Below, piece after piece: positions 25,629-42,388 of a DNA stretch of 64,000 nt. Source of the DNA: Nannocystales bacterium (GTDB lineage Bacteria; Myxococcota_A; Polyangia; Nannocystales; Nannocystaceae); NCBI GenBank assembly GCA_050633305.1, contig JBOEGF010000018.1, positions 576,001 to 640,000 of the forward strand, read 5' to 3'. The position numbers were made by a program, and so were the translations under genes. The notes under the pieces were generated by a model, which made no database searches, was not told where the DNA came from, and was given only the letters and a program-made list of their open reading frames with translations. Numbering within the stretch: the stretch's first letter is position 1; each line of letters opens with the position of its first letter.

Positions 25629-27143
25629 ATGCACGACGACAAGGATTCCAAGACGAGCACTCTGGGTAGGATGGGTGCGGAGGCGCGCGTTCGAGGAGTC
25701 TTGGCGGCGCTGCCTGACTTGATGTTCGTCATCTCGAGAGACCTGGTCTTCGAGGAGTACCAAACCCCGGATCCTGAGAAATTGCTGATGCCGCCGAGCA
25801 GTTTCGTCGGCAAGCGGGTGGACGAGGTCCTGCCGCCGGATGTGGCGAGTCGAGTGAACGATGCGGTGCGCGGGACCCTCGCGGACGGGGAGCGCCGAAC
25901 GGTCCCGTACGCGCTCGACTTCCCCGACGGACGACAGTGGTTCGAGGCAATCTCCGGTCTGTGTGATGAAGACTCTGTTCTCTTTGTCGTTCGCGATCGA
26001 ACACGACAGGTGCTCCTCGAGGAGCGCCTTCGGATGCGAGATCGGATGGCATCCCTGGGGACGCTCGCCTCGGGCGTCGCCCATGAGATCAACAACCCTC
26101 TGACCTACGTCTTGGGCAATCTCGACTTCATCCGCGACTCCATTGAGCCAGGCGGAGATGAGGACCTCCTCGGTGCGTTCTCGGACGTCGTCCACGGGCT
26201 CGAGCAGGTGTCAGGGTTGATCGCGGACCTTCGGGTGTTCTCGCACCCAGGAAGCACCGAGCCCACGGCTGTCGATCTCAACCACGTCGTTGAAGCGACC
26301 CTTCGTCTCGCCAAGGGGGCGCTCAATCGACACGCCGTGTGGACGTACGAGGCTCAAGAGCTCCCTGCGGTCGCCGGGAATGCCAGCCAGGTGGGCCAGG
26401 TCGTGCTGAACCTCGTGACCAACGCGATCGACGCCATCGGGTCGGGCGCGGCGACCGACAACGAGATTCGCATCGAGACGCATCACGATGACGAGAGGGT
26501 CACGTTGACCGTCAGCGACACGGGCGCTGGGATTCCTCCGGAGATCCGAGAACGCATCTTCGACCCCTTCGTCACGAGCCAAACGGTCGGCACGGGCACT
26601 GGGCTGGCACTCGCGGTCTGTCGCAGCCTCGTCGTGTCGCTCGGCGGCACCATTCGTGCTGAGTGTCGTTCGCCTCGCGGTACTGTGGTCACCGTCGCGT
26701 TCCCCCGCCACGAGGCCAAACCGACCGCCGTCCCCGAACGCAAGACCGAGCCGTGCACGTTCGCGCCGCAAGAGGCACGAATCCTCGTGGTGGACGACGA
26801 TGATCGCGTCGCACAGGTCACGGCCCGGGCCCTGGAGGGCTACGAAGTTGTTGTCGCCCTCGATGGAAGGGCTGCCCTCGAGGAGATTCGGCGAGGTCAG
26901 GCGTTCGACCTGGTGCTGTGCGACCTCATGATGCCGGGGATGACGGGCATGGAGCTGTACCGGGCCGTCGAGGACTCGGACCCCGACTTGGCCGGGCGTT
27001 TCGTTTTCATGACCGGTGCGGCCTACAGCCCCGACGCTCGCTCTTTTGTCGAGTCGACTGCCCGTCCGTTGCTGCAGAAGCCGTTCGCGCTCGCGAGCCT
27101 TCGGATGACGATCGCCGAACGGCTCCGCGTCTCACAGGCGTAG
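25629..27143 (+). CDS. Hybrid histidine kinase (PAS-HisKA-HATPase-REC)
   Basis: AHEINNPL H-box, NLVTNAIDA N-box, DTGAGI, REC with LVVDDD and DLMMPGMTG, QKPF; start approximate. Confidence 0.93.
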   Translation: MHDDKDSKTSTLGRMGAEARVRGVLAALPDLMFVISRDLVFEEYQTPDPEKLLMPPSSFVGKRVDEVLPPDVASRVNDAVRGTLADGERRTVPYALDFPDGRQWFEAISGLCDEDSVLFVVRDRTRQVLLEERLRMRDRMASLGTLASGVAHEINNPLTYVLGNLDFIRDSIEPGGDEDLLGAFSDVVHGLEQVSGLIADLRVFSHPGSTEPTAVDLNHVVEATLRLAKGALNRHAVWTYEAQELPAVAGNASQVGQVVLNLVTNAIDAIGSGAATDNEIRIETHHDDERVTLTVSDTGAGIPPEIRERIFDPFVTSQTVGTGTGLALAVCRSLVVSLGGTIRAECRSPRGTVVTVAFPRHEAKPTAVPERKTEPCTFAPQEARILVVDDDDRVAQVTARALEGYEVVVALDGRAALEEIRRGQAFDLVLCDLMMPGMTGMELYRAVEDSDPDLAGRFVFMTGAAYSPDARSFVESTARPLLQKPFALASLRMTIAERLRVSQA

Positions 27144-27185
27144 CCAGCTGGCGTCTGTCTCGGCTTGGATGGGCGAGGCCGACGC

Positions 27186-28112
27186 CTACTTCTCGTGGCA
27201 GCTGTAGTCGAGCTTGGCTCGGCCTTTTTGTACGGTATCGCCGTTGCCGAGCGTGACCGACATTGCGATCACATTGCCTTGGTCGTCGTAGCGGTAGTCC
27301 AGCCGCCGATCCGTCGAGCCGTCGCTGCCGTGGTCTTCCTTGATGCGCTCGAGTTGCCCGACCTTGCTGTAGCCGAAGGTGACCGTCATCGGCTCGCCCT
27401 GCCAGGGCTTCTTCACGGTGGCTTTTCGAGCGATACCTTGTCGCAGGTAGACCTTCGCGTCCTTGCGCTTGGCGTAGATCGGATAGCCAGGAGTGAGCCC
27501 GGTGAACCCCGCAACTTCGACCAGCGTGACGTCGCGCGACTTGCCGCCCTCGTCGAAGCTGGCGGTCGCGACGTTGGACTTGGGGTCGTAGGTGGGCTCG
27601 ATCGTGGATTCGACCGAGTCGTCACAGCCCTCGTCGATCTCGACCTTGGTGGTCTTGCCCTCGGCGATGGTGAACGTGCCACAGGCCTCGGGTTTACCGT
27701 TGCCGTCGCTATCCACCTTGACCGTGCCGCCCTCGCCCTCGTACGCGAACGTGAGCTTGGCTCCGGTGCTCCAGGTGACCTTGCAGGGGCCGGGATACGC
27801 AGCCTCGGCGTGCGGCACCTCTTCGGGAAGCGGCTCTTCAGGATCGATGGCCGCGACTTCGGGGTCCACGGCCTCGTCTGCCGTGTCTCCAGCGGGCGCC
27901 TCCCACTCACCGCCCTCCGCCGAGCCGTCCCCCAAGTCCGCCTTGGCGTCGCCGTCGGCATCGGGCTCAGCCTTGTCACCCGCGGTGTCGACCTTGGGGG
28001 CTGCTTTGGAGTCACCGGCGGTCGCGGCCGTTTGCCCAGGGGCGTCTTTGTCGCTGCCGCAGGCGAGGGTGGCGATTCCGAAGAGGGCGAGGGCGAGGGC
28101 GCGCGTGCTCAT
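27186..28112 (-). CDS. Lipoprotein with acidic linker and DxDxNG/YD-like beta repeats
   Basis: MSTRALALALFGIATLAC lipobox; VDSDGNG, EDHGSDGSTDRRLDYRYDDQGN; ATGA overlap with the radical SAM gene. Confidence 0.75.
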   Translation of the reverse strand: MSTRALALALFGIATLACGSDKDAPGQTAATAGDSKAAPKVDTAGDKAEPDADGDAKADLGDGSAEGGEWEAPAGDTADEAVDPEVAAIDPEEPLPEEVPHAEAAYPGPCKVTWSTGAKLTFAYEGEGGTVKVDSDGNGKPEACGTFTIAEGKTTKVEIDEGCDDSVESTIEPTYDPKSNVATASFDEGGKSRDVTLVEVAGFTGLTPGYPIYAKRKDAKVYLRQGIARKATVKKPWQGEPMTVTFGYSKVGQLERIKEDHGSDGSTDRRLDYRYDDQGNVIAMSVTLGNGDTVQKGRAKLDYSCHEK

Positions 28113-29929
28113 GAGGGGTCCGTGGGCAGGTCCGTAGAGGTTGAACGATCGAGAACGGGGCGCAGCGCTTCGGTTCCGTAAAGATCTGCATAGCCCCGCC
28201 TGAGGCCGAAGCAGCGGGTTTGTAGCACACAAGATGCGCATCCTGCGGGCTTCACGAACTCCTCTGTGCTCAAACCGTGGACGGCGTCCGCCAACGGGAC
28301 GAAGCGACGCAGGTCGCCGGGGACCAGGCACAAGGGAAGTCCGCACATCGACTCGAACCCATCGACGGTCAATCCCGCATCTTCGCCCAGTCGCATGCCC
28401 TCGCCGACGAGCGGAAGCACCTCCTCGTAGCGGGGAATCAGCGCACGTGTGCGGGGGACGAGGTCCGTGGATGGAGCCACGAACGAGACATTGACCGCCG
28501 CCGAGGGCCACCGAGCGGCGACCATGCGAATGAACCCGGGGAACTGCCGGTAGTTGAGCTGGCACAACACGAAGTTCAGCCGGAGTTCGATCGGTGTCGC
28601 GGCAAGCGCATCGATCCCGGCGACCGTCGCCTCGAAGGTTCCCGGCGCCTCGGTCACCTTGTCGGAAGTCTCGGCGTCGGTGCCGTGCAATGAGATGAAG
28701 GCGCGGTCCACCCCGGCATCGGCCAGCTTCGCGGCCAGGTCGTCTTTCGCCAGCCGGGTTGCGTTGGTCTGAAGCTCGACCTCGGCGACCCCGCGTTGCT
28801 TTGCGTAGCGTACGTACTCCAACAGTCGGCGGTTGAGCGTGGGCTCGCCGCCGGAGAGCGCGAGACTGCCGCGCTCGGCGGCGATGGCATCGATCGCCTT
28901 GCGCACGTCTGCGTCTGCAGGGTCGGGGAGGTGAGTGCTGACGAAGCAGAACGTACAGCTCTGGTTGCAGCGGAAGTTCACGCGAACGATCGCCGCGGGC
29001 ACCGAGGACCCGTCGGGTCGTCGGTAGACTTCGCGAGTCACCAGCTCCCGCTGCGCCTGGGCTGCAGCGGTCCCGATGACGGTTAAGCGTCGCCTCAGCG
29101 TGGACGACGACAGTGGGCGTGCTCGATGCTGAAGTCCAATTGGGAGACCGGGGCAGCGTTCCCGCACAACGCATGTTTCGCACTCGGGTGCTTGTGCGAA
29201 CTTGCTGCGGGTGCCCGCACCTGGGTTCAGGGCGAACACATGGGCGACCCTCGAGGGATGCTCGAAGGCGCACGGAGGAACGAACGCTGCAGGGTCGAGG
29301 CTTGCCGGGAGTTCGACGCGACGCGCCGCGCGAACGAAGGCTTCAGCGATGGCCGTCGCTTCCGAGAGCTCGGCCAGTGCTTCGGTCCGTGGGGACGATG
29401 TGGGAACGCCGAACCAAAGAGTTCGCGGGGACAGGCCATGGTCAGCGAGCCGCTCGGGCAGCGCGGCCACGTCTTGGAGGTTGTCTGACACGACCGGTGT
29501 TGCCGTCTCGTAGTCCAGCGTCGAGCCCTCGAGCGCGAGAAGTGTCTCGAGGACCGCAGCGCCTGTGCCCGCCTGACCGGTGAACGCATCGAGGTCTGGG
29601 CCCCATGCTGGAAGATGAACGCGCACCACGTCGAGGCCTGCGTCCTGCAGCGCCCCGAGGTCGAGGTGAGCGCCGTGGGTCTCCAGGACCAACTCAGCGT
29701 CCGTCCGCGCCCGCGTCCACGCTACCAGGCGAACCAAGTCATCTCGCAGGGTTGGCTCGCCACCACTGAGCACGAGCGTGTGCGGCGAGGCCTCCATGGC
29801 CTTGAGCAAGGCTGCTCGAAGTGCGGGCCCCCCGGCGACCTCGGCCCTCTCTTGATCGCGACGCCCGTTGCAAAACCGGCAGCGCAGGTCACAGGTCTCG
29901 TTGGTCAGGACCCGAAGTGTGCGACTCAC
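28109..29929 (-). CDS. Tandem two-domain radical SAM protein
   Basis: CDLRCRFC...SGGEPTL...CETCVVRERCPG and CNQSCTFC...SGGEPTL...QTN...CASCVLQTRCFG; GTG start overlaps the upstream stop. Confidence 0.92.
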   Translation of the reverse strand: MSRTLRVLTNETCDLRCRFCNGRRDQERAEVAGGPALRAALLKAMEASPHTLVLSGGEPTLRDDLVRLVAWTRARTDAELVLETHGAHLDLGALQDAGLDVVRVHLPAWGPDLDAFTGQAGTGAAVLETLLALEGSTLDYETATPVVSDNLQDVAALPERLADHGLSPRTLWFGVPTSSPRTEALAELSEATAIAEAFVRAARRVELPASLDPAAFVPPCAFEHPSRVAHVFALNPGAGTRSKFAQAPECETCVVRERCPGLPIGLQHRARPLSSSTLRRRLTVIGTAAAQAQRELVTREVYRRPDGSSVPAAIVRVNFRCNQSCTFCFVSTHLPDPADADVRKAIDAIAAERGSLALSGGEPTLNRRLLEYVRYAKQRGVAEVELQTNATRLAKDDLAAKLADAGVDRAFISLHGTDAETSDKVTEAPGTFEATVAGIDALAATPIELRLNFVLCQLNYRQFPGFIRMVAARWPSAAVNVSFVAPSTDLVPRTRALIPRYEEVLPLVGEGMRLGEDAGLTVDGFESMCGLPLCLVPGDLRRFVPLADAVHGLSTEEFVKPAGCASCVLQTRCFGLRRGYADLYGTEALRPVLDRSTSTDLPTDPS

Positions 29930-30813
29930 AGGAGGTCCTCCACACGCGCAGGAGCGCCGGATGCCCATGCACGGGCCTGAGCTGCGAAGAGGGTGCACCA
30001 GGTGTTCCGGTCCGCCGAGTCTGGTTCGTAACGAACGGCCCCCTGCTCGTCGGTCAGCGAGTCCAAGAATGCGAGACCTCGGTCGATCGACCCGCGGTGT
30101 CCCTCCGGGTCATGGAGGACCCAAAGTCGAATCGCCTGCGCTGTCCCATCGGCACGGCTAGGGCCCCCGTCGCTCCAGGCCGGGATGCCGCCGTCCTCCC
30201 GTTGAACGCGACATAGGAACTCGATTGCTCCATCGATGTCGACCGGGGCTGGGACGTCCAAGGCGCGGAGGGCGAGCAGTCCTTCACAGGCGTAGGCGTG
30301 TGCGTGGACATAGGTTGGTTCGTGGGGGGGCGTCCGCAGGCGGCCGGTTGCATCTTGTTGGACTCGTACGTCTGCCAGTCGGTCCAGGGTTGGCGTGCTC
30401 CAGCCGCGCTGGGCCCGTGCGGCGCACCCCACGGCCAGCTTCAGCATGTGGGGTCCCGCGACCGAGCTCCAGCGGGGGGGCGCGGCAGGGTGGACAACTG
30501 GGGTGGTGGTCAGGCGCCGACGCGCTTCGGTCCATCGCGGGTCTTCGTGTTCGTCGAGCGTCTCCAGTCCAGCCAGGGCGACTGCGGTGTCGAATGCGTA
30601 GACGAGTCCGTCTCGGCCAACCCGCCCTTCGTCGACCTGTATGGCGAGTCGCGTCGTGACGTCTCGGGGCGCGGGGATGCCTTGAAGCGCGAACCATCGA
30701 AGCAGGAGTCCGGCCGCCTCGGGATACGCGTACCCGCGGTGATCCGGGTTGACCCACGACAGGACGGCGTCGCCGTGCACGGCATGCTCCGATAGCCAGG
30801 CCTCGGGGTTCAC
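29926..30813 (-). CDS. (alpha/alpha)-toroid protein (prenyltransferase/squalene-cyclase repeat-like)
   Basis: GYAYPEAAG, YAFDTA, HAHAYACEGL, FLCRVQREDGG (QW-like repeat), WCTLFAAQA; coupled by GTGA overlaps on both sides. Confidence 0.7.
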   Translation of the reverse strand: MNPEAWLSEHAVHGDAVLSWVNPDHRGYAYPEAAGLLLRWFALQGIPAPRDVTTRLAIQVDEGRVGRDGLVYAFDTAVALAGLETLDEHEDPRWTEARRRLTTTPVVHPAAPPRWSSVAGPHMLKLAVGCAARAQRGWSTPTLDRLADVRVQQDATGRLRTPPHEPTYVHAHAYACEGLLALRALDVPAPVDIDGAIEFLCRVQREDGGIPAWSDGGPSRADGTAQAIRLWVLHDPEGHRGSIDRGLAFLDSLTDEQGAVRYEPDSADRNTWCTLFAAQARAWASGAPARVEDLL

Positions 30814-31883
30814 GGCGTCCCCCTGGCACGTACCCGCTGCAGCAGTCGGCGGGCGGTGACGGTGGCGGTCCGCAGGGGAGCGCCGGCAAGAGCCGGGTAG
30901 GCCTCGCATGCGCTGAAGCAGCCGCCGCACGACAACGACTCGATATCGCGCCGCGCCTGCTTCACATCGTCCCCGTGCCACAGCGATTCGAAGGCCTGCT
31001 CGCGAAGGTTTCCCAACGGACGGTCGTAGAGGTGGCACGGGTACAGGTCGCCCTCGGGGGCGATGAACGCCGCACTGCGCAGGGCTTGGCAAGGCACGCC
31101 CGATGGCTCCCCGGCCGCAACGGCATCGAGGTTGACCAGGTACACGGACTCCATCAACTCCACGAGCGTCCGCGGGAGGCCGCGGCGAGCCATGTGACGC
31201 TGGAGGAGGTCCCCCGGTGGCACAGCCTGGGGACCGATGTCTTCGTTGCCGAAGAAGTGCGCGGAGGTCTGTAGCCAGTTCCAGTGCCAGCGCCGGAGGT
31301 CGAACCCTTCGGCGCGCAGCATCGCCTCTGTCCTCGGCAGCGCATCAACCGTTTGGCTGGAGACCGTGGTGCCCACGTGCACCTCCACCCCACGTAACGC
31401 CTGCAGACGCCGCAGTGTTTCCAACGCACGTTCTGCGGAGCCGGACCGTCCGCGTACCTCGTCGTGCACGTCGGGCGGTCCGTCGAGGCTGACCGTCACG
31501 ATCAGCTCGATGTCCTCGCGCGCCGCCCGAACGGCGGCCGTCACGGCTTCGACGCGCTCCGTCATCCATCCGTTGGTTTGGTAGTGCAGCACCGTGAGGG
31601 CATTGGGGATCGTGGCCGCAGCCCGCAGCACCCGCTCGATGTCCGGGCGGACAAAGGGCTCGCCCCCGGTGACATCGAGCCAGGTCAGTCGTCCCAACTG
31701 ACCGAAGATGGTCTCGATCTCCTCCGCCGTGAGCGCGCCTGTGCCCGGGTGTTCCCAAGTCCGGCACATCGAGCACCGCAGGTTGCACCGCCGCGTGACG
31801 TCGAACACCACCCGGGTCGGGGTCGGCGGTCGATGCACCCATGTCTCCGCGAGACGGGCGATCATCTCCAAACGACGCGGCAC
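30810..31883 (-). CDS. Radical SAM protein with SPASM/twitch domain
   Basis: CNLRCSMC, TGGEPF, TNG, SLDG; C...FIAPEGDLYPC...LGNL...CGGCFSAC. Confidence 0.92.
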   Translation of the reverse strand: MPRRLEMIARLAETWVHRPPTPTRVVFDVTRRCNLRCSMCRTWEHPGTGALTAEEIETIFGQLGRLTWLDVTGGEPFVRPDIERVLRAAATIPNALTVLHYQTNGWMTERVEAVTAAVRAAREDIELIVTVSLDGPPDVHDEVRGRSGSAERALETLRRLQALRGVEVHVGTTVSSQTVDALPRTEAMLRAEGFDLRRWHWNWLQTSAHFFGNEDIGPQAVPPGDLLQRHMARRGLPRTLVELMESVYLVNLDAVAAGEPSGVPCQALRSAAFIAPEGDLYPCHLYDRPLGNLREQAFESLWHGDDVKQARRDIESLSCGGCFSACEAYPALAGAPLRTATVTARRLLQRVRARGTP

Positions 31884-31968
31884 CCGGTGAGCATGCCACG
31901 GACCCAGTGCGGCGAGGCCGTCTCGACGATCTTGCTACAATGCGGGGGCGAATGGATGTTGCGCCCCA

Positions 31969-33246
31969 ATGCTGAGACGCCACGCCAAGCAGGTGGTGCT
32001 CTCCTTCACGAGCCTGGTCCTTGCTGCGAGTTGTTCGGATGCGGACTTGGAGGGCTCTGGCGGACCAACTGAGGATGTCGAGGACGAAGCCGCCTCCGAC
32101 ACCGAATCCGATGCCGGGCCGTCGGACGAAGCCTGCGTTGGTGCAGGCGGCGATTTCGGGATCCTGGCGACGCACTCGCTGAGCGGAGAGCTTTCGGGGG
32201 CGGAGGGACGATTGTCTGCTCCCGGTCTGATCCTTGGGCCGGACGGACTGTGGGCGAGCTTGGTGGCGGCCGAGGGAACCGACGCTTCCGGTCCGGTCGG
32301 CGTCGAGATGCTGCTGGCCCACGACGGAGCGGTGCTTCAACCTACGGACCTCGTGGACGGTCGTTGGGCTGGGGGGATGTGGTGGCCCGGCGTGACTGGA
32401 GCTGTGGTGAGTCAGTGCGAGGACCGCGTTCCGGGCTGGACGTTTGTGGGTCCGCTCGGTGTACCGCTGTCGCCGCGCGATGATCCTGGCGAAGCGTCGG
32501 CCTGCGGACAGCCACCAAGCGCGGCGTGGGTCTCGGAGTCCAGCGCCTTGCTGGCCTGGCTGGATACCGACGTTCGCTGTGAAACGGGCCCGAGCTGTGT
32601 CCGGGTCACCCGAGCAAACTCGCAGGGGCACGGACCCATCTACGACTTGTTCGATGGGGGCGACTCTGGGCCGGGAAACTCGGTCTCGGTGGCGGCGGGA
32701 GCCGAGTCTGCGATGGTCGCGATGCTTCGTCTCGAGGAACAGGTCGAACTCGTGACCCAGCCGTTGGACCTCGAAGGAAACCCGACCGCTGCTCCGACCG
32801 TGGCGGTGCTCCCGCCTTCGCCGGAGCCCGGAGAATCCGCGGTGTTCCTCGAGGCGCGGGTTGTCGCGGAGCAGGACGGGAGCTTCCACGTCTACGTCGG
32901 CGGGTGGGGGTTCTCGATGGGTCGTATGCATGTTGCTGCCGACGGCGAGCCCCTCGAGCCGGTCACGGCGCTGCCTCCCGTCGTCGGTCTCAACGTGTGG
33001 GGCGTCTACAACAGCGAACTCCGCGGGGTGTACCCTCGTCCCGGTGGGTGGGTTGCTGTCGGACAAGCGGTCATGGGCGGGCAGGTCCTCACCTTGCTCT
33101 GTGCGCTCAGCTACGAAGGCGAGCTGGTCGGACATGTCGTTCTCCCCCGCTACGACGTCGCGGTCGTCGCCGACGCGGAGCGGTTGTGGGCGCTGGGGGT
33201 GAGTGGCGGGGTTGACCTCTACGAGCTTGGCTGTGTCCCGCCTTGA
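31969..33246 (+). CDS. Hypothetical lipoprotein
   Basis: LAASC lipobox, acidic linker, beta-rich body. Confidence 0.7.
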   Translation: MLRRHAKQVVLSFTSLVLAASCSDADLEGSGGPTEDVEDEAASDTESDAGPSDEACVGAGGDFGILATHSLSGELSGAEGRLSAPGLILGPDGLWASLVAAEGTDASGPVGVEMLLAHDGAVLQPTDLVDGRWAGGMWWPGVTGAVVSQCEDRVPGWTFVGPLGVPLSPRDDPGEASACGQPPSAAWVSESSALLAWLDTDVRCETGPSCVRVTRANSQGHGPIYDLFDGGDSGPGNSVSVAAGAESAMVAMLRLEEQVELVTQPLDLEGNPTAAPTVAVLPPSPEPGESAVFLEARVVAEQDGSFHVYVGGWGFSMGRMHVAADGEPLEPVTALPPVVGLNVWGVYNSELRGVYPRPGGWVAVGQAVMGGQVLTLLCALSYEGELVGHVVLPRYDVAVVADAERLWALGVSGGVDLYELGCVPP

Positions 33247-33253
33247 ACCGATG

Positions 33254-34492
33254 TCAGGGGGTCGCCAGCAGCTGGTGGATGCCGTCTAAACCGCCCACCA
33301 CAAGGTCCTGGTTCCCGTCGCGGTCGACATCGAAGAGGACGACCGAGCCGACACCGTGGGGGTAGGAGATGGAGCGTCGCTCGAACACGCCGGGGTGCGT
33401 TTGAGCGAGCACGACGATGTGGTCGAAGTCCGGGGGCTCGTTCTCCGCTGGAGGCGACGTGACGTCGCGCGTGAGCATGTCTAGTCGACCGTCTCCGTCG
33501 ATGTCACCGACGCTGAGCGTCAGCGGTGGCCACCCAAGCTGGAGCGAGTCGGAGATCGTGACCCCGCTTGTGGGGTCGTACCGGGCAATCAGAAGCTCGG
33601 CGCTTGGGGTGCTGAGCAGCAGTTCGTCCCGCGAGTCGCCGTCGAGGTCTGTGACCGCAAGAAGTGTGGTGTCCACAGGGATCGTGAGTGTGGCGCTCAC
33701 CTCGTACCCGATCCCTGTCTCGTCCAAGCGAAGCACGGCGAGGTTGCCGTCGACCGGCGCGGCGAGCTCGGGGACCGCGTCCCCGTCCAAGTCGCCGGAG
33801 AGCAAGGAGTCCGTCGGGAACACTGGAAGCGGGGCCGCTCCGACCACTCCGGAGGGATAGACCAACCAGCTATCCCAGCGGTCTCGGGCATGGTTCGGGC
33901 TGAATATGCGACCGGGGAGATCTCCATGAGAGGGCACTCCGTCGACCTGAGATGAGCCGCCGGAGACCGCGGCGATCGGCACCAGTGCGTCCTCCTCAAA
34001 GGACAGAACTTGGCAGACGCCAATACTGTAGGCGCTGCAGTACAAAAACTCGTCAAAACCGTCGCCGTCGATGTCGAGAACTTCACCCTCGACTCGCTCT
34101 GTGGTTGAGCCGAACCACTGCTCACGGAGGGAGTCCGTGCCGTCGCGAAACAAGACCCGGACATGCACTTCGCGATTGTCGACGAGCAAGGCATCGCCCT
34201 CGGACAGATGTACGGGCTCGAGCCGGCCTGAGCGTTCGGCGACCAGAGTCCGGGCCCCAAAGCAGAGTTTGCCCGGCGCCGTCACTCCCGTCCCGCAGGG
34301 GGCGCAGACGCCTTCATCGCAGAATAGGCCGTTCGTGCAGCCCAAGGTCGCTTCACAGGGCGCGCCCGCTTCCTGGGTCGGGCCGAGACCGGTTCCCTCG
34401 GCGCCCTCAGGCGATGACTCCTCCGCACAGCCCAATGTAGCGAGCAATCCCAACAGCACCAGGGGGCGGCGCCGGATTCGAAGTCTAAGCAC
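33254..34492 (-). CDS. FG-GAP/VCBS repeat lipoprotein
   Basis: TLGC lipobox; DIDGDGFDE, GDLDGDAVPE, DLDGDSRDE, GDIDGDGRLD, DVDRDGNQD repeats. Confidence 0.85.
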   Translation of the reverse strand: MLRLRIRRRPLVLLGLLATLGCAEESSPEGAEGTGLGPTQEAGAPCEATLGCTNGLFCDEGVCAPCGTGVTAPGKLCFGARTLVAERSGRLEPVHLSEGDALLVDNREVHVRVLFRDGTDSLREQWFGSTTERVEGEVLDIDGDGFDEFLYCSAYSIGVCQVLSFEEDALVPIAAVSGGSSQVDGVPSHGDLPGRIFSPNHARDRWDSWLVYPSGVVGAAPLPVFPTDSLLSGDLDGDAVPELAAPVDGNLAVLRLDETGIGYEVSATLTIPVDTTLLAVTDLDGDSRDELLLSTPSAELLIARYDPTSGVTISDSLQLGWPPLTLSVGDIDGDGRLDMLTRDVTSPPAENEPPDFDHIVVLAQTHPGVFERRSISYPHGVGSVVLFDVDRDGNQDLVVGGLDGIHQLLATP

Positions 34493-34513
34493 GTGCCATC
34501 ATTGTATCAGCCC

Positions 34514-35404
34514 ATGCCCGTGCGCCTCGAACTTGTGGTCTCGACCATCTTTGCCCTGGGTTGCAATCCGGGCCGCTCGGGTCAATCCAACAGCGGCGGC
34601 ATGGGCGACAGTGGGTCGATGGAATCGATGGCTGCTACCGGTTTGGTGGGAGCGACGGAGGGTTCAGGCATGGTCCCAGAGGCGTCCACGCAGGGGGCAT
34701 CCGAGGAGACGGGCGGCGAGTCATCCGTCTGCACCGAGGTCCACATTGGCGACCTCGTCCTCAGTACACAAGATGACGTCGAGGCTTCGGCTCGATTGCG
34801 TGAGGTTCAGGGCTCGCTCACGATCTCGGGAAACGTGGCGAGCCTGGCGGCGCTCGGTTGCCTCGAGACAATCGCGGGCGGGCTGACTGTCGATGAGACC
34901 CGTGGCCTCCGGAACCTCGAGGGGTTGGGGCAGCTCGCGGATGTTGGCGGTTGGCTCACCGCCACAAGCAACCCCGACCTCGAGAGCCTCGAAGGCCTCT
35001 CTTCGCTCCGTTTCGTGTCCTGGATCTACCTCGGGCGAAACGGTCTGACCCACCTTGGTCTCTCAGACTTGCAAGCTGCTGAGGGGATCGTGGTGGGGGG
35101 ATGCAGTCTGGATGGGGCTCGGGACTCGGGGGAGCCGCTGCTCGTCGACTTTGATGGGCTCGACGCTCTCCTCGCGCTGGGTGTCGTCGCGATCTACGAA
35201 TCGCCGATGCTCATGCGGCTGAGTGGACTCGAAGCCTTCGCCCAGCGGGGCGGACAGATCCTCTCACTGTCGTTGTGGTTCAACGAACAGTTCGATCTTG
35301 GGTCTGTGACGGACGCTACGGACCTCTTCGAGGGCACCCATATCGATGCGTGTGGAAACGAAGGTCAGAGCACGGAGCGGTGTTTCTGTCCTCCACCGCC
35401 ATAG
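34514..35404 (+). CDS. Receptor L-domain/leucine-rich repeat lipoprotein
   Basis: ALGC lipobox; LREVQGSLTI, LRNLEGLGQL, LESLEGLSSL repeats. Confidence 0.8.
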   Translation: MPVRLELVVSTIFALGCNPGRSGQSNSGGMGDSGSMESMAATGLVGATEGSGMVPEASTQGASEETGGESSVCTEVHIGDLVLSTQDDVEASARLREVQGSLTISGNVASLAALGCLETIAGGLTVDETRGLRNLEGLGQLADVGGWLTATSNPDLESLEGLSSLRFVSWIYLGRNGLTHLGLSDLQAAEGIVVGGCSLDGARDSGEPLLVDFDGLDALLALGVVAIYESPMLMRLSGLEAFAQRGGQILSLSLWFNEQFDLGSVTDATDLFEGTHIDACGNEGQSTERCFCPPPP

Positions 35405-35474
35405 TCGGGACCCGGACTCACGGGATGGCAAGCTCCAGCCGTCACGCCGTAGAGTCTGCTAGGGTCTGCGACTG

Positions 35475-36443
35475 GTGAGGGGCTCTTCGTTCAGCGGCCG
35501 CCGCGTTCTCGTGACGGGCGCGGATGGCTTCATGGGTTCGCATCTCACCGAGCGTCTGCTCGGACTGGGTGCGGAGGTGAGCGTCCTCGTTCGTCCGCGC
35601 TCGGTCACGGGGACGGTCGGCGCGGAGTTCCGCAACTTGGGCCCGGTGGCGGGCAAGCTTCATCGGGTGGTCGCGACGGACGTTGCGGGGCCCGATGCAG
35701 AGGCCGCGATCGCGGACCTTTGCCCATCGGTGATCTTCCATCTCGCCGCCGATGCCTACGTCGAGCGTTCGTTCTCACACCCTCGGGAGGTCTTGCGAAC
35801 CAACATGGACGGCACGATGACGGTGCTGGAAGCTGCGCGTCGCAACCCGGGCATCGAGCGTGTGGTCGTGACGAGTAGCTCGGAGGTCTATGGACCGGCG
35901 CAAGACGAGCGGATGGCGGAGGACCACCCGCTGCAGCCCACGTCGCCGTATGCGGCGTCGAAGGTCGCCGCGGACCGGATGGCGATCGCGTACCACCGGA
36001 CGTACGGGACCCCGGTGGCGATCATCCGGCCGTTCAACACCTACGGACCCCGCCATGTCTACGACGTGATCCCCAAGTTCATCGCCCGCGCGCTGGCGGG
36101 GCAGCCGCTGCTGGTGTTCGGCGACGGTCTCCAGAGTCGTGACTTCACCTATGTGGACGACATGGTTGCGGCGTTCTTGTGCATGGGCGCGCACCCGGAT
36201 GCGTTGGGTCAGGTTGTGCACTTTGGCTCCGGCCAGGCGACCAGCATCGCGGCTCTCGCCAAGGCCGTGGCGGCTGCGGTCGGGGGGGACGTCCGCATCG
36301 AGTCCGCCCCGGCCCGAGCCGCGGAGGTCGCACGCCTGTGCTGTGACGCGACGCGGGCCGAGTCGTTGCTCGGTTGGACACCCCGGGTTGCCTTGAGCGA
36401 GGGTTTGGCTCGCAACGTTGCATGGATGCGCGAGCGAGCCTGA
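35475..36443 (+). CDS. NAD-dependent nucleotide-sugar epimerase/4,6-dehydratase
   Basis: VTGADGFMGSHL, HLAA, SSSEVYG, PYAASK, RPFNTYGPR, RDFTYV. Confidence 0.93.
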   Translation: MRGSSFSGRRVLVTGADGFMGSHLTERLLGLGAEVSVLVRPRSVTGTVGAEFRNLGPVAGKLHRVVATDVAGPDAEAAIADLCPSVIFHLAADAYVERSFSHPREVLRTNMDGTMTVLEAARRNPGIERVVVTSSSEVYGPAQDERMAEDHPLQPTSPYAASKVAADRMAIAYHRTYGTPVAIIRPFNTYGPRHVYDVIPKFIARALAGQPLLVFGDGLQSRDFTYVDDMVAAFLCMGAHPDALGQVVHFGSGQATSIAALAKAVAAAVGGDVRIESAPARAAEVARLCCDATRAESLLGWTPRVALSEGLARNVAWMRERA

Positions 36444-38035
36444 CGCGCGGCCCTCTAGGGCTGGTCCTCCTGCTGGCGGGGTTCTGCGCCTTGGCAGGGC
36501 TGGGGTTGAAGGACGGCCGGTACCTGCACGACGAGGGGCTGCTGACCCACCTGTTTGCGCTTGTCACGTCGCGTGACCCCGCGGCGGGGTTCTTCCTGCA
36601 GAAGAGCCGGCCGCCCATCAGCGCTCTGTACGCACCGTTGTCCGGGTCTCTCGAACTGTTCTTCTGGGCCCACATTCTCGTCGGTGCGCTTGGCATCGCC
36701 GCGCTGTGGGGCGCTGCGCGGGCGCTGGGCCATCGCGTCCCTCTACTCGCCCCAGGCGTCCTGGCTCTCTCGCCGCTGTTCATCGGCGGATCGGTGGCGG
36801 GTCTCTCCAACGCCGATGTGGTGACCGGCCTGTGCGTCGTCGCTTGGCTGCATGCCAGCGATCGGCGGGGCGCCGCGGCGGTGGTGCTCGGAGTGTTGCC
36901 GTGGATTCGCGCGGAGGTGGCGGTGCTTGCGATGTTGTTCGCCATCTCCGCGGTCCGTCGCGCCGCATGGAAGGAACTCGGCGCCCTCGCTGCGTTTGGC
37001 GCAGTCTACGGGCTCGCGGGCATCAGCTATCACCGCGACCCCGTATGGTTCCTGCACTTCCCGCCCGCGCTTCCCGAGCCGATGCCGAACAATCCGTACT
37101 GGGCGGATCACGCCGGGGCTGCAAGCCTGGCCACGCTTGTCGGCGCCGCGGTGGCGCTCACTCCCGTTTCGCCGGCGCTTGCGCTGGTCCGCTGGAAGAG
37201 CCTACGTAGCACCGAACGACTGGGCCTGTGGTTCTGCCTGACGTTCGTCGGGGCGTTGGTCGTGCTTCCAGTGTGGCAGGTCTTCAACTTCGACACCTCG
37301 CCGCGTTACCTGCTTCCGGTGGTGCCCTTCGTCGGCCTGGCGATTGGCCGAGCTGCAGGGGGATGGATCGATGAACTGGATGAGCCGGGCCGCTTCGCGC
37401 TGCCGCTGCTGTGCCTCATGGCGTTGTTGGCCTACGCGGGAGCCGCATCGGCTTCGCATCCCACGGGACTGATCGCCGTGTGCGTTGTTGCGGTGGCACT
37501 CACAGCGCACCGCGCTGCCGCGGCGGGGCTTGCCGGGACCACGCTCGGGGTGCTGGCACTGTGTGGGCCGTGGTTTTTCGCGGACGGGGGCCAACTCGAC
37601 AGTCGAGCGACGGTGCCCCACTTGGCGCCCATGATCGACCGCCTGGGTGAAGTCGTGGGCGAGCAGCCGAAGGTGGTCTACACGAACGAGCCGCTGCTGG
37701 CTTCGAGCTTGGCACGCTCCGGGCGGTTGCCGAACGTGACGGTGTTCTACATCGTGCAAGAGGACCAACGCTTCGAACTCGAGCGGCTGGCGAACCCTGC
37801 GGTTGGGCAGCGAGAGGCGCTGTGGGAGGCGATGACGCCCAACGCATACGGACGGCCGGTGCGTCCTGACGCGTTGCGCCCAGATACCGTGCCCGTGGGA
37901 GCCATCTTCGCGTTGACCAAGGACAGCCGCCTGCCCTTGGTCATGCCGCCGGAGCGATGGAAGGGTCTGTTGCGTGTCGTGGCGCCGGGCTACGACATGA
38001 CGATCGAAGAGCGCGTCGAGCGGGGGACTCCATGA
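36422..38035 (+). CDS. Multi-pass membrane protein, GT-C-like
   Basis: LHDEG acidic motif after the first TM helix, RAE, PRYLLP; many TM segments and a soluble C-terminus. Confidence 0.7.
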   Translation: MDARASLTRGPLGLVLLLAGFCALAGLGLKDGRYLHDEGLLTHLFALVTSRDPAAGFFLQKSRPPISALYAPLSGSLELFFWAHILVGALGIAALWGAARALGHRVPLLAPGVLALSPLFIGGSVAGLSNADVVTGLCVVAWLHASDRRGAAAVVLGVLPWIRAEVAVLAMLFAISAVRRAAWKELGALAAFGAVYGLAGISYHRDPVWFLHFPPALPEPMPNNPYWADHAGAASLATLVGAAVALTPVSPALALVRWKSLRSTERLGLWFCLTFVGALVVLPVWQVFNFDTSPRYLLPVVPFVGLAIGRAAGGWIDELDEPGRFALPLLCLMALLAYAGAASASHPTGLIAVCVVAVALTAHRAAAAGLAGTTLGVLALCGPWFFADGGQLDSRATVPHLAPMIDRLGEVVGEQPKVVYTNEPLLASSLARSGRLPNVTVFYIVQEDQRFELERLANPAVGQREALWEAMTPNAYGRPVRPDALRPDTVPVGAIFALTKDSRLPLVMPPERWKGLLRVVAPGYDMTIEERVERGTP

Positions 38036-38487
38036 TCTGGCGATGGGGACCGTCGGCACTGCTGTGTCTGCTTTGCATCGCGGGTGTGCTGCATCGTCTT
38101 GGCGGGTCGGCACCGCAAGAGAGAGCCAGTCGACAACAACCCGCGCCCCCAGAGGCCTTGGCGTTGCTGGACGGTCTCCAAGTGGGGGAGAAACTGGCAG
38201 GGTGGACGGTGCTGGGCATCACCGGACCGAAGGATCGGGTGCTTCGTATCGACGTTGCGCACGCCGAGATTCGGTTCTCGATCTCTGTCGCCGCCCAGGG
38301 GGCGGTGGAGTATCCGGCGCCGCGCACGACCGAAACCTACGAACTCTACTACGGGCATCCGCACCCACGGGACACGGAGATCCCCGAGTCCGCCACGCGT
38401 GCGATCATGGCCGGAATCGAGCGCCGCGTCCGCCGGAACGAGGCCACGGTCGAGGTTCCTGGCATGTCGACCGAGACGCCTCCATAA
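38032..38487 (+). CDS. Small exported protein, probable paralog of 39581-40096
   Basis: N-terminal TM; LQVGEKLAGWTV...FSISV...TETYELY...RRNE; ATGA overlap. Confidence 0.7.
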   Translation: MIWRWGPSALLCLLCIAGVLHRLGGSAPQERASRQQPAPPEALALLDGLQVGEKLAGWTVLGITGPKDRVLRIDVAHAEIRFSISVAAQGAVEYPAPRTTETYELYYGHPHPRDTEIPESATRAIMAGIERRVRRNEATVEVPGMSTETPP

Positions 38488-38530
38488 AAATCCGAAGGCG
38501 GCGCGAACCGCCGGAGGGTACGGTTGTTGG

Positions 38531-39049
38531 ATGCGGGGTAGGGCGATCGTGGGAGTGCTGGTGTCGGCGGTCGTCTCCGGTTGTGACTCCGCACCCTGCG
38601 TCGAGATGCTCAGCGCTCCGGAGAAGGCCCTTCATGCCCTCCCGGGGATGTTGGTCGCCTACGCCGTCGCATGGGCTGGTCTCGACGCGGCGCGCTTCGT
38701 GCTGAGGGCACCTGAGACCGGGGCGGGTCGGGTCGCTGGGATCTGTGCGTTGGGGGTCGGAACCGTCGGCCTCGCGGGCGTGGTGCCGGATTTCTTTCCG
38801 CTGCTGCTGGGTGTGCTCGTGGTGTGCTTGCTTCCGATGGCGTGGGTCGGTCGCATGGTCCGAGCGACGTCGGAGCGCTCCGTCTGGCGTACGGCCGGCG
38901 CACTGGCCTGCACCGCCGCCACGGGGGTGTTCCTCTGTGGGCTCGCGGCGGCGAACGTCGCGTTGGTGACCGGGGCGGGTCGAGTCTGCGCTCCGTCAGC
39001 GGTGAGCGCACCGAGCGTCGCCCCGGCGGACATCCGTTCGCAACAGTAG
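38531..39049 (+). CDS. Hypothetical membrane protein
   Basis: VSGC lipobox-like sequence, then about four hydrophobic helices; TACGGT box 6 nt upstream. Confidence 0.55.
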   Translation: MRGRAIVGVLVSAVVSGCDSAPCVEMLSAPEKALHALPGMLVAYAVAWAGLDAARFVLRAPETGAGRVAGICALGVGTVGLAGVVPDFFPLLLGVLVVCLLPMAWVGRMVRATSERSVWRTAGALACTAATGVFLCGLAAANVALVTGAGRVCAPSAVSAPSVAPADIRSQQ

Positions 39050-39080
39050 GGTCGGTCGCCTCGATCCCCGCGGCGCGGAG

Positions 39081-39584
39081 TCAGCCCCGAACCGCGCGCA
39101 GTTCGAGGTCTTTCCCAAACGACTCGAGGTACGACTCGGGCACTCCGGGGCACGCGGGGCGGGCGTCACATCCTTCGCAGACTTCGGCGAAGGTATGCGA
39201 GGTCGATGGCGCAGCGAATTCAGCGTGCGGTCCGAGGACACACGCGGGGAGTCCCGAGGTCCGAACGAGGAGGCCCGCCCGCCGCGCAATGCTGGCGGCG
39301 TGCAGGACTCGCGGGGCAACCATGCCCAGTCGAGAGGGGGACAATCCGTGCCGCTGGGGCCCGGGCCAGGTCAGCGTCCACCGACGGACCTTCTCTCGCA
39401 GGGGCGGCCCGGACAGCCAGCGAGCGAGCCCTGCCAGGTTCCGGACGTTGGCACGAGTGACCAGGGAAACGATCTCGACCGCCGCCGCTGCGCGCAGCGT
39501 GGAAATCGCTTCGTCGTAGTCACCGGGCTGCCCGGCGACGTGGTCATGGATCGCAGCGGTGGCACCGTGGAGCGCGAGCGTCAC
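39081..39584 (-). CDS. Radical-SAM-like C-terminal half protein lacking CxxxCxxC
   Basis: LHGATAAIHD...PG, LPACVL, CEGCDARPACPGVPESY; GTGA-coupled to the upstream gene. Confidence 0.72.
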   Translation of the reverse strand: MTLALHGATAAIHDHVAGQPGDYDEAISTLRAAAAVEIVSLVTRANVRNLAGLARWLSGPPLREKVRRWTLTWPGPQRHGLSPSRLGMVAPRVLHAASIARRAGLLVRTSGLPACVLGPHAEFAAPSTSHTFAEVCEGCDARPACPGVPESYLESFGKDLELRAVRG

Positions 39585-40096
39585 GACTGCAACGGAACGC
39601 CGAAGGTGCCGTCGGGGTGCTCGGTCTCTCGGGCCCGCAGCGTCAACAGCGAGGGCAAGTCGTTCTCGCTCGCCTCGAGCACGCGGGCCAGCGCCATCGC
39701 GCCCAAGCCCTCGGTCTCATCCGTGGATGTGCCACCGTCTCCACGGTTGGAGACGTAGACGCTGAAGTGCTCCGTGTTGCCCACGCCTTGTGGTCCGCCC
39801 GGGTCTCGGGCGAGGACATCGACTTGGTAGCGCTCGCCTGCGTGGGTTTCGAGGACCACCGGAAGGGCGCCGAGAGTGACCGGGTAGACCGCGATCACGC
39901 GGACTTTGGTCCCGGGGAGCACGGTCCCTGGCTCGAGCGAGGGCATCTCGATTGTGGCGACCTGGGTCTCGCCGTCCTTGCGGTTCTGCGCGAGTGCGCC
40001 CGCGCCGACGGCCGCGCCTGCGACCGCCAAGCCAGCCACGACGGTGCGTCGCCGCATCTGAGGATTGCCGTCGTTGCTGTCGCGTTGCTCGTCCAT
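39581..40096 (-). CDS. Small exported protein with Tat-like signal, probable paralog of 38032-38487
   Basis: MRRRTVVAGLAVAGAAVGA; LEPGTVLPG...YQVDVLARD...TEHFSVY...LEASE. Confidence 0.75.
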   Translation of the reverse strand: MDEQRDSNDGNPQMRRRTVVAGLAVAGAAVGAGALAQNRKDGETQVATIEMPSLEPGTVLPGTKVRVIAVYPVTLGALPVVLETHAGERYQVDVLARDPGGPQGVGNTEHFSVYVSNRGDGGTSTDETEGLGAMALARVLEASENDLPSLLTLRARETEHPDGTFGVPLQS

Positions 40097-40179
40097 CGCC
40101 ATCCCGCCCTGACAACCACGGTAGAGCCCCGCGCCCCGATGGGTCAAGAACGTCGCCTGATAAGGTTCTGCCGACCCCT

Positions 40180-41130
40180 GTGGCAGGCCTGCTCGACATC
40201 ATCCTCGGCTACGACTGCAACCTGGCCTGTACCTACTGCACCATCACCGAATCGATGCGCGCACGCGCGCTTCCGGCTCGGGCGGTCGCAGCGGAGTTGA
40301 GCCGCGGGCGCAGCAACGGGTTCGACCAGGTGTCGTTTACCGGGGGCGAACCGACGATTCGAGGCGATCTGCTGCCCTTGGTGCGCCGCGCCGCCGAGTT
40401 GGGGTACCGCAGCATCAAGGTCCAGAGCAATGGGCTGCTGCTGGGGGTCGGAGACAACGCCGCGCGTCTGTTGGATGCAGGGGTTACCTGTGTGCACATC
40501 TCGATTCACACCCACGAAGTCGCGGCCTACGAAGCGATGGTTCGGCGGGAGGGCACGCATCGGCACATGAAACGCGGCCTCGAGGTCCTCGCAGCGACCG
40601 GCGTCGAGCTTGGCGCCGACGTGATCCTCGAGGCCGATACGCTCTCCAGGCTGCCATCGGCCGTCGATTGGCTGGCGGCCCGGGGGGTGCGGGCAGCCGA
40701 CCTGTGGTTCGTCTCGCTGACCGACGGCAACGCGAAGCGGACCGCGAGTCTGCCCAGCATGAGCGAGGCCGTGCCCTTCATCGGCCAGGCCCGAGTTCGA
40801 GCCGAGTCTCATGGCATGAGGCTCCGCTCGTTGCACATCCCGCCATGCATCCTTGGCGAGCACGCCGACTTGGCGCATAACCCCGCGCTGCAGCGGGTTC
40901 GCGTGGTCAGTCCCGATGCCGTCTTCGACCTCGCCGACAGTGCGATCACTCCCCGCGAACACGTTCCGGCTTGCGACGGATGTACCGAGCGGACGACCTG
41001 CGGCGGTCTGCGCCCGGACTACATCGCCGAGATGGGAGACGTGGAGGTCGCCATGGCCCGTGGAATGGAGCCGTCCCGTCGGGGCCGGCGCAGACTCTCG
41101 GTGGTGAGGTCTGCGACGCCCGAGGGCTGA
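40180..41130 (+). CDS. Radical SAM protein
   Basis: CNLACTYC, FTGGEPTIR, QSNG, IPPCIL, CDGCTERTTCGGLRPDY; start approximate. Confidence 0.92.
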   Translation: MAGLLDIILGYDCNLACTYCTITESMRARALPARAVAAELSRGRSNGFDQVSFTGGEPTIRGDLLPLVRRAAELGYRSIKVQSNGLLLGVGDNAARLLDAGVTCVHISIHTHEVAAYEAMVRREGTHRHMKRGLEVLAATGVELGADVILEADTLSRLPSAVDWLAARGVRAADLWFVSLTDGNAKRTASLPSMSEAVPFIGQARVRAESHGMRLRSLHIPPCILGEHADLAHNPALQRVRVVSPDAVFDLADSAITPREHVPACDGCTERTTCGGLRPDYIAEMGDVEVAMARGMEPSRRGRRRLSVVRSATPEG

Positions 41131-41190
41131 GGAACCCGTACACCGCAGAGGTGGCGAGGCCTCTCGATGCGCTCTACCCTGCGGACATCC

Positions 41191-42021: not shown

Positions 42022-42032
42022 GGCGGGCCCCC

Positions 42033-42353: not shown

Positions 42354-42388
42354 GGTCTCTTCCGGGAGCAGGGTTGGGCGTGTCGTCG

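Follow-up and report, generated by a model that had tools for sequence, protein, structure and literature searches.

Decorations of the bacterial envelope with a single lipid-linked sugar shape antibiotic resistance, recognition by phages and predators, and surface charge. The PpgS/Rv3779 pair, a polyprenyl-phosphate-GalNAc synthase and a GT-C glycosyltransferase, places GalN on mycobacterial arabinogalactan, and is not known to involve tailoring by radical S-adenosylmethionine (rSAM) enzymes. To our knowledge the Arn pathway has neither an rSAM enzyme nor a toroid protein, and rSAM tailoring has been reported for none of the decorations of this kind (Arn, PpgS/Rv3779, Gtr). Here we analyse a window of 64,000 nucleotides (contig JBOEGF010000018.1, positions 576,001 to 640,000 of the forward strand, assembly GCA_050633305.1) from a marine-type myxobacterium of the family Nannocystaceae, and within it the interval 27186-41130, given like all positions below in window coordinates unless a contig is named. 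A first-pass annotation had proposed there a candidate multi-rSAM system that would modify a nucleotide- or lipid-linked sugar and transfer it outside the membrane. We read the interval, with moderate confidence, as a composite envelope-glycoconjugate locus whose core would carry out an Arn/PpgS-type lipid-linked sugar decoration.

The core comprises an rSAM/SPASM enzyme of 357 residues (30810-31883, minus strand), a cytoplasmic protein of 295 residues referred to as 'aa', a probable alpha/alpha toroid (29926-30813, minus strand), and a GT-C-fold membrane glycosyltransferase-like protein of 537 residues (36422-38035, plus strand). Phyletic patterns were read in 40 related genomes, 24 of which belong to the family; the source genome itself is G000 (11.0 Mb), and the Nannocystaceae relatives are Paraliomyxa miuraensis, Plesiocystis pacifica SIR-1 and many metagenome-assembled genomes. 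The three genes are distributed identically: all are present in the same 14 of the 40 genomes (G000-G007, G009, G012, G014, G015, G018 and G023), and the 10 family genomes (of 24) in which they were not found are likewise the same for all three. This identical pattern, which comes from kin genomes and not from independent events, marks them as a strict core. They are inherited together even when apart, the toroid and GT-C genes being separated by 85 kb in G009 and genes of the core by about 20 kb in G004.

The wider neighbourhood was read in 25 loci anchored on 'aa', many of them cut by contig ends, with neighbours identified by tblastn. The loci contain the rSAM/SPASM gene (21), the GT-C gene (16), the gene of a small N-terminally anchored or exported protein, Exp1 (14), that of an extended short-chain dehydrogenase/reductase (SDR; 14), a double rSAM gene (13), a GT2 glycosyltransferase gene (13), and the genes of the lipoprotein LipoA (12), the exported protein Exp2 (9) and the rSAM enzyme RS3 (5). 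In the common layout, a unit transcribed in the order SDR, GT-C, Exp1 diverges from a unit transcribed in the order rSAM/SPASM, 'aa', GT2, double rSAM, LipoA, and Exp2 lies nearby with an rSAM gene. Two cultured strains are carriers: Paraliomyxa miuraensis SMH-27-4 has the rSAM/SPASM, toroid, GT2, SDR, GT-C, Exp1 and Exp2 genes, and Plesiocystis pacifica SIR-1 has those of rSAM/SPASM, toroid, GT2, GT-C and Exp1. A failure of these genes to co-occur elsewhere had been named as telling against the proposed system, and the opposite is seen, as they are found together in relatives.

The concentration of rSAM genes in the interval is far above chance. PF04055 matches 38 times in the 11.0-Mb genome, and four of the matches lie at C18:604568-616608, that is, window 28568-40608, where a uniform spread would give about 0.045 per 13 kb. 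Five rSAM-type domains in four genes had been counted at first; four domains in three genes hold, each with CX3CX2C and a PF04055 match above the cut-off (the N- and C-terminal domains of the double rSAM protein, the rSAM/SPASM enzyme and RS3), and the fourth gene encodes a truncated half, described below. The rSAM/SPASM enzyme belongs to the SPASM subgroup, as PF13186 scores 41.6 bits for a cut-off of 21.5, and 20 orthologs all keep its auxiliary-cluster cysteines C265, C283, C319, C322 and C326. A second rSAM-rich region is present in the same genome at C14:48000-83500, with six PF04055 matches in about 35 kb, and larger arrays of twitch-type rSAM genes occur in relatives, with at least 10 matches at G020:C17:42-110 kb and several on G019:C28 and in G034.

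The membrane protein clearly has a GT-C fold in its AlphaFold2 (AF2) model (pLDDT 90.1, pTM 0.91), in agreement with what the first reading had taken it for. The best Foldseek matches of the model are ArnT structures (5ezm/5f15, E 5e-7), and comparison with VIA gives Z values of 21-23 against ALG12, STT3, ArnT and Pmt1/2/4 over 330-460 aligned residues, with 48 GT-C entries at Z of at least 11.6 before the next row falls to 6.0. Moreover, D37, E38 and G39 of the first loop are the same in all of 15 orthologs, and an acidic motif in the first extracytoplasmic loop is a hallmark of the GT-C family. At the sequence level the relationship is faint: no Pfam family matches at E up to 1 and no curated GT-C family is matched, single orthologs give weak matches to GT87 (5e-4), STT3 (3e-3) and PMT_2 (0.014), and a profile of the orthologs found nothing useful among PDB sequences.

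The gene just upstream, which overlaps that of the GT-C protein by 22 nucleotides, encodes the extended SDR (322 residues; 35475-36443, plus strand), a member of the nucleoside diphosphate (NDP)-sugar epimerase/dehydratase/decarboxylase family with the YxxxK motif. Its scores remain under every NCBIfam cut-off (LegB 248.4 for 475, RmlB 186 for 365.1), among solved structures its best relative carries the label UDP-glucose 4-epimerase, and it reads S-S-E at the site corresponding to the T-D-E catalytic triplet of RmlB-type dehydratases. These features leave an extended-SDR NDP-sugar enzyme in place of the NDP-sugar dehydratase initially proposed, as the dehydratase part is not established by them.

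The 'aa' protein has no family match, and a QxxDGGxPAW-type motif is conserved across its homologs. Several indications make an alpha/alpha toroid plausible: it has Atlas feature matches scoring 0.94 with a set of clusters, 17% of them carrying SQHop_cyclase_C, the same Pfam family is seen below threshold in 3 of 14 scanned family members, and a weak PDB profile match is obtained to the thioester domain of alpha-2-macroglobulin (E 0.006). The earlier designation as an (alpha/alpha) enzyme is thus plausible, with a conserved motif and weak links to two families. A hopanoid Hpn-like pathway was considered and rejected: HpnA scores 84.5 for a cut-off of 367.65, the 295 residues of the toroid protein make up one domain, and neither HpnH nor HpnJ is among the best 25 rSAM matches.

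The relatives of 'aa' point towards sugar metabolism. A profile of the family retrieves 1461 representative clusters at E <= 0.001, and among the best 150 of these are two metagenomic fusions of the toroid with a WecB-type UDP-GlcNAc 2-epimerase (P0140 and P0199), whose N-terminal parts match Epimerase_2 with 287 and 217 bits; P0140, the one of the two that was checked with NCBIfam, scores 333 bits on TIGR00236 (wecB; cut-off 210). In three Nannocystaceae loci that contain no rSAM/SPASM gene (L042, L045 and L050), the gene immediately upstream of 'aa' encodes WecB. Among 401 evenly sampled Myxococcota genomes, 44 genomes from many families have an 'aa' homolog at E <= 1e-10. Forty-one 'aa' matches lie outside the Nannocystaceae, and in the 20 of these whose neighbours were read by tblastn we found an rSAM/SPASM enzyme (15), a carbamoyltransferase (15), a GT2 (13), a membrane protein of about 520 residues (12), an MBL-fold protein (10) and WecB (4); Pfam confirmed the identities of the neighbours in three scanned loci, and one of the membrane proteins matches PMT_2. 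These genes form a conserved operon in other Myxococcota families, represented by L066:8029-17352 (G054) and seen in similar form in L057-L071, which encodes a GDSL-like protein, 'aa', GT2, carbamoyltransferase, rSAM/SPASM, WecB, the membrane protein of about 520 residues and the MBL-fold protein. Across loci, the 'aa' family therefore accompanies nucleotide-sugar enzymes, GT2 enzymes of the polyprenyl-phosphate type and large membrane proteins. Its named homologs, like those of Exp2, are all called 'hypothetical protein'.

The GT2 gene is found directly after or near 'aa' in 13 of the 25 anchored loci. The relatives' enzyme passes the Pfam Glycos_transf_2 cut-off with 92.5 bits, and its best NCBIfam matches, all below cut-off, are without exception sugar transferases acting on polyprenyl or dolichyl phosphate: AglJ, a dolichyl-phosphate hexose transferase, PpgS and ArnC. 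It is absent from the cluster in the clade of the window, a well-supported group of seven rows on a long stem. At the place where most relatives have this gene of 225 residues, the end of 'aa' runs about 73 nucleotides into the double rSAM gene (29926-29998). An overlap of about 70 nucleotides is seen in the clade, and it looks like a deletion scar common to its members.

Gene content, folds, motifs, synteny and co-inheritance are observed directly; from them we infer a sugar as the substrate of the core, and the order of steps, the donor lipid, the acceptor and the part played by the accessory modules are proposed as follows. A nucleotide sugar would first be remodelled in the cytoplasm by the extended SDR and by the rSAM/SPASM enzyme acting together with the toroid protein. 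A small GT2 (whose best homolog in this genome lies outside the cluster) would then load it onto polyprenyl phosphate. After flipping, the ArnT-like GT-C protein would pass the sugar to an acceptor at the outer face of the inner membrane, with Exp1 as a possible partner or acceptor at this step. Two accessory modules, one formed by the double twitch-type rSAM protein with its lipoprotein and the other by RS3, the Exp2 protein exported by the twin-arginine (Tat) route and the truncated rSAM, might add further radical tailoring, or their rSAM enzymes might mature exported proteins before Tat export.

Overall, the comparative data favour a sugar pathway over one for a ribosomally synthesised and post-translationally modified peptide (RiPP). 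The 11 non-genic open reading frames of 20-120 residues in 27000-43500 include no intergenic one that is conserved in the loci of relatives, and no interval product has a Pfam or NCBIfam match to a RiPP recognition element (RRE) or PqqD-like domain, to a transporter or to a cofactor-pathway protein. The initial statement that precursor peptide, transporter and cofactor genes are lacking is therefore upheld by the small-ORF search (20 residues or more) and by the family scans. Its companion inference, of a sugar rather than a RiPP substrate, gains from the GT2 context, the WecB fusions, the shared phyletic pattern and the lack of an RRE or a conserved small open reading frame, and loses from the composite nature of the interval. 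In a broader form, which we consider possible and put forward only tentatively, the locus would represent an undescribed class of envelope decoration in Myxococcota, in which a dedicated rSAM/SPASM enzyme with its toroid partner acts on a sugar, either ahead of its loading onto polyprenyl phosphate or afterwards, and a GT-C protein transfers it. The Nannocystaceae would have added a battery of twitch-type rSAM proteins that work with a Tat-exported protein of new fold, among them the half-rSAM, an auxiliary-cluster half kept under purifying selection though its catalytic half is gone.

The first accessory module consists of the double rSAM protein (629 residues; 28109-29998, minus strand) and LipoA (27186-28112, minus strand). 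The former carries CX3CX2C and a C-terminal CX2CX5C in each of its two twitch-type domains, and full-length orthologs are present in 16 of the 40 genomes, namely the 14 genomes with the core and G019 and G020. LipoA has an LACG lipobox, a low-complexity linker and a conserved C-terminal domain of about 200 residues with four invariant cysteines, and shows a weak RHS_repeat match (E 0.024). The start codon of LipoA (ATG, 28112) overlaps the stop codon of the double rSAM gene, as expected for the coupled lipoprotein described initially, and LipoA follows the double rSAM gene in 12 of the 13 anchored loci that have the latter.

The nearest solved relatives of the twitch-type domains, all distant, are BlsE, GDGT-MAS, PqqE and MoaA. 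BlsE, which decarboxylates a nucleoside-sugar, comes closest to the C-terminal domain of the double rSAM protein and to RS3 (about 40189-41130, plus strand; frame open from 39952, with homology beginning at 40189), with E values between 1e-9 and 1e-10. Since sugar-acting rSAM enzymes such as BlsE, BtrN and DesII are typical of antibiotic pathways, and Nannocystaceae are rich in secondary metabolism, we also considered that the genes could make a diffusible glycolipid or an aminoglycoside-like natural product rather than decorate the envelope. This is very improbable in our judgement: Pfam and NCBIfam detect no polyketide synthase, nonribosomal peptide synthetase, exporter or resistance gene in the interval, a GT-C protein combined with a GT2 of the polyprenyl-phosphate type typically serves to transfer sugars to envelope acceptors in the periplasm, and a core present in 14 of the 24 family genomes, with a related form across Myxococcota families, better suits a housekeeping envelope trait than a metabolite specific to single strains.

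The second accessory module is built around Exp2 (39581-40147, minus strand; the start is probably at 40102 or 40057). In 30 aligned homologs a nearly invariant twin-arginine motif is followed by a hydrophobic stretch, and the alignment shows no conserved cysteine, no repeat and no leader-core layout. The 323 homologs are unnamed or 'hypothetical', and come from Myxococcota wherever they are labelled. Exp2 contains an alpha/beta domain of about 115 residues that is modelled confidently, for which Foldseek finds no PDB match at E <= 0.001. A possible lipid-binding function was looked at and is not used as evidence, because the VIA Z values are within the range of noise (5.6 at best, for the SMP domain of Mdm12, and 4-4.7 for MucB/RseB, Aha1 and SPLUNC1).

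Exp1 (151 residues; 38032-38487, plus strand) is coupled to the GT-C gene, which it adjoins in 14 of the 16 anchored loci that have this gene. Two paralogous exported proteins had been reported in the interval, and the kinship of Exp1 and Exp2 is faint: BLASTP finds no similarity between them and hhalign gives a probability of 82% (E 1e-5 over 100 columns), which would make them remote paralogs at best.

Exp2 occurs in the 16 genomes with the double rSAM gene and in G017. Its loci were compared by coordinates, and at least 15 of the 18 loci, from 17 of the 40 genomes, have a twitch-type rSAM gene no more than about 400 bp away. This gene is directly downstream of Exp2 in G007, G012, G014, G015, G019, G020 (C17) and G023, and is truncated in the clade of the window; it is divergent upstream of Exp2 in G000-G004, G006, G014, G017, G018 and others. 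The downstream gene in the window, half-rSAM (167 residues; 39081-39584, minus strand), aligns solely to the C-terminal part, about half, of rSAM enzymes of the twitch type. It is conserved in five species (that of the window, G002, G006, L035 and L036), in all of which some 105 residues at the N terminus are missing and CX3CX2C and GGEP with them; full-length orthologs stand after Exp2 in other genera (G015 and L039). Since its product has neither CX3CX2C nor a PF04055 match, it cannot be counted as a catalytic rSAM member. Four of its cysteines are invariant, and its dN/dS ratio, a rough value as dS is near saturation, is about 0.2-0.5 overall and 0.21-0.24 in the two closest pairs, compared with 0.11-0.12 for RS3. 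With its cysteines and this ratio, half-rSAM looks like a non-catalytic remnant that has been retained, and not like a decaying pseudogene.

A number of observations weigh against the lipid-linked sugar decoration proposed for the core. No enzyme of the locus reaches a curated family cut-off, so that no substrate can be assigned, and we identified no flippase, aminotransferase or acceptor for the pathway. The cluster itself holds no GT2: the best homolog in the genome, with 52% identity, is on contig C10, in a region that has no other gene of the cluster. The membrane protein of L066 shows no detectable homology to that of the window (hhalign probability 8%), and a search of the non-Nannocystaceae loci with the window's GT-C profile gave no match at E <= 0.001 by hmmsearch. 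The co-occurrence counts overstate independence because the related genomes are kin. The best solved relatives of the rSAM/SPASM enzyme are the peptide maturases SkfB (3e-19) and CteB (2e-11), and Exp2, which adjoins a twitch-type rSAM gene in most of the searched genomes, resembles with it a maturase-substrate pair. Finally, G019 and G020 have the double rSAM gene and Exp2 without the toroid, rSAM/SPASM and GT-C genes, and in G007 and G009 the core and the double rSAM gene are on different contigs.

An alternative is protein maturation, in which the rSAM enzymes would modify Exp2, and perhaps LipoA and Exp1, in the cytoplasm and the GT-C protein would O-glycosylate them in the periplasm in the manner of PMT enzymes. 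The near invariance of the Exp2 twin-arginine motif, the frequent presence of an rSAM gene beside Exp2, the translational coupling of the double rSAM gene to a lipoprotein, the maturase relatives of the rSAM/SPASM enzyme and the presence of Pmt1/2/4 (Z 21-22) among the structural matches of the GT-C protein all agree with it. For the Exp2 module a protein substrate is indeed possible, since a Tat-exported protein and an rSAM enzyme are paired there in a conserved way. As an account of the whole locus we find it unlikely. Exp2 shows no conserved cysteine, repeat or leader-core layout, and no RRE or PqqD-like domain was found; in the rSAM/SPASM enzyme, whose first cluster cysteine is residue 33, there is no room for such a domain, as the matches start at residue 108 of SkfB and residue 92 of CteB, past the N-terminal recognition domains of both. 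In addition, the clade of the window keeps Exp2 although the adjacent rSAM has lost its catalytic half, and the toroid-WecB fusions and the SDR and GT2 context would be left without a role.

The remaining points bear on whether the genes form one system. The interval had been presented as such, and in this respect the first-pass annotation does not hold. With five strand switches across the gene map the interval is not one operon, although coupling is tight inside each unit: overlapping stop and start codons, noted from the outset, amount to 4 nucleotides at four junctions (rSAM/SPASM to toroid, where the GTG start of 'aa' overlaps the rSAM/SPASM stop; double rSAM to lipoprotein; GT-C to Exp1; Exp2 to half-rSAM), and to the 73 and 22 nucleotides mentioned above at two more. 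The two divergent units are separated by three lipoprotein genes, at 31969-33246 (plus strand), 33254-34492 (minus strand, with FG-GAP) and 34493-35404 (plus strand), among whose products BLASTP shows no paralogy. They have no tblastn match in ten fetched regions of relatives, and in G006, G018 and G015 the rSAM/SPASM gene and the SDR gene adjoin each other in divergent orientation, with nothing between them; on this basis they probably represent an insertion in this genome and not members of the system.

It could be argued that unrelated cassettes, one for a sugar (rSAM/SPASM, toroid, SDR, GT-C and Exp1), one with the double rSAM gene and its lipoprotein and one with Exp2 and its twitch-type rSAM, are adjacent solely by shared ancestry, in a region where lineage-specific genes are plentiful. 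The strand switches, the three intervening genes, the two genomes with accessory genes and no core, the separate contigs in G007 and G009, and the existence of other rSAM-rich regions in the genome, for instance the six PF04055 matches on C14 (48-83 kb), are in line with this. We nevertheless give it a low probability, as the genes are contiguous across several genera (G015, G018, L039-L041, L049, L051 and L053) and the double rSAM gene and Exp2 are present in all 14 core genomes. What G019 and G020 do indicate is that the accessory modules are not obligatorily tied to the sugar core. The double-rSAM/LipoA and Exp2/twitch-rSAM pairs are therefore separable modules, perhaps acting on proteins, next to a core that we continue to read as a probable lipid-linked sugar decoration.

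The other genes of the region contribute little to this picture. In the window, of about 66% G+C, real and spurious open reading frames were told apart by third-position G+C and a frame plot, and the sorted frames were then checked with Pfam and NCBIfam. The only sequencing run listed for this DNA is itself one of DNA, from a microbial-mat metagenome, and no RNA run is listed. Lipo4 (172 residues; 38531-39049, plus strand), with a lipobox and three to four hydrophobic segments, is poorly conserved, having a counterpart only in G006 among the fetched regions and in 1 of the 25 anchored loci. Downstream of RS3, the lipoprotein U284 (284 residues; 41167-42021, plus strand) has no family match and is kept only in the clade of the window; its motifs VTGF..., YLCNETHS and FFVHIP are reminiscent of pyroglutamyl peptidase (Peptidase_C15), to which Pfam and NCBIfam give no match. 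It is followed by an open reading frame of 106 residues with gene-like codon bias (42033-42353, minus strand), partly conserved in L036 only, and by SDR2, a classical short-chain dehydrogenase (42389-43348, minus strand) of uncertain membership that is near the cluster in 5 of the 25 loci. The flanks carry unrelated genes, among them those of a hybrid histidine kinase, a PLD-like enzyme, a classical SDR and an S41 peptidase. Farther upstream the window encodes two proteins that are unusual in bacteria, a tRNA-queuosine alpha-mannosyltransferase N-terminal domain (17548-18741, plus strand; QTMAN_N, 189 bits) and a SUFU-like protein (19884-20573, plus strand; 99.7 bits).

If this reading is correct, the co-inherited rSAM/SPASM, toroid and GT-C genes would define a new sugar chemistry in a poorly studied and largely uncultured family, and the toroid family, with its 1461 clusters, would acquire a context in nucleotide-sugar or lipid-linked sugar metabolism. 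The pairing of Exp2 with twitch-type rSAM enzymes and the conservation of half-rSAM bear, furthermore, on how rSAM enzymes recruit partners. In full-text literature outside subscription journals we found no rSAM/SPASM and toroid pair linked to a GT2/GT-C pathway, the one paper matched being a RiPP review (PMC10125368).

Among known rSAM systems, BlsE, BtrN, DesII and HpnJ share with this locus twitch- or SPASM-type enzymes; those known enzymes carry out redox reactions, decarboxylations or rearrangements of (nucleoside-)sugars or of sugars linked to lipids. The resemblance to BlsE is limited to the rSAM core, with 59 bits on TIGR04466 for a cut-off of 400, and the gene contexts differ. As in His-Xaa-Ser systems, related rSAM genes stand side by side and the twitch-type domains have HxsC (112.8 bits) and HxsC4 (72.1 bits) among their best NCBIfam matches, but the scores stay far below the cut-offs of 267.9 and 500, the NCBIfam scan finds neither HxsA nor HxsD, and no conserved small open reading frame (20 residues or more) was found. 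The enzymes anSME and QhpD modify Tat or Sec substrates in the cytoplasm before export, and a cytoplasmic SPASM/twitch rSAM gene beside that of a signal-bearing protein is also what Exp2 and its rSAM present; Exp2, however, resembles neither a sulfatase nor QhpC in sequence and lacks a conserved cysteine or serine target motif, and anSME matches the rSAM/SPASM enzyme at E 4e-7.

The closest likeness is to the Arn and PpgS/Rv3779 systems. Arn comprises an extended SDR that acts on a UDP-sugar, a small GT2 that loads undecaprenyl phosphate and a GT-C protein, ArnT, that transfers the sugar in the periplasm; the locus has an extended SDR and an ArnT-like GT-C fold, and a GT2 is encoded in the clusters of most relatives. 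It differs in that Pfam and NCBIfam detect no ArnB aminotransferase, formyltransferase, deformylase or ArnE/F in the cluster, and the scores for ArnC (42.4 bits for 529) and ArnA (50.3 bits for 777) are far below cut-off. PpgS/Rv3779 is a minimal pair of GT2 and GT-C, by which a single modified sugar is added to a polymer of the envelope. PpgS is among the best NCBIfam matches of the relatives' GT2, at 88.7 bits for a cut-off of 370; phylum and envelope are different. By these comparisons the locus falls outside the Arn, His-Xaa-Ser, RiPP and RmlB/LegB groups, in keeping with the early impression that the pathway is not a characterised one. Taken together, our verdict is that it is a putative Arn/PpgS-like lipid-linked sugar decoration, in which radical-SAM tailoring would be the new element.

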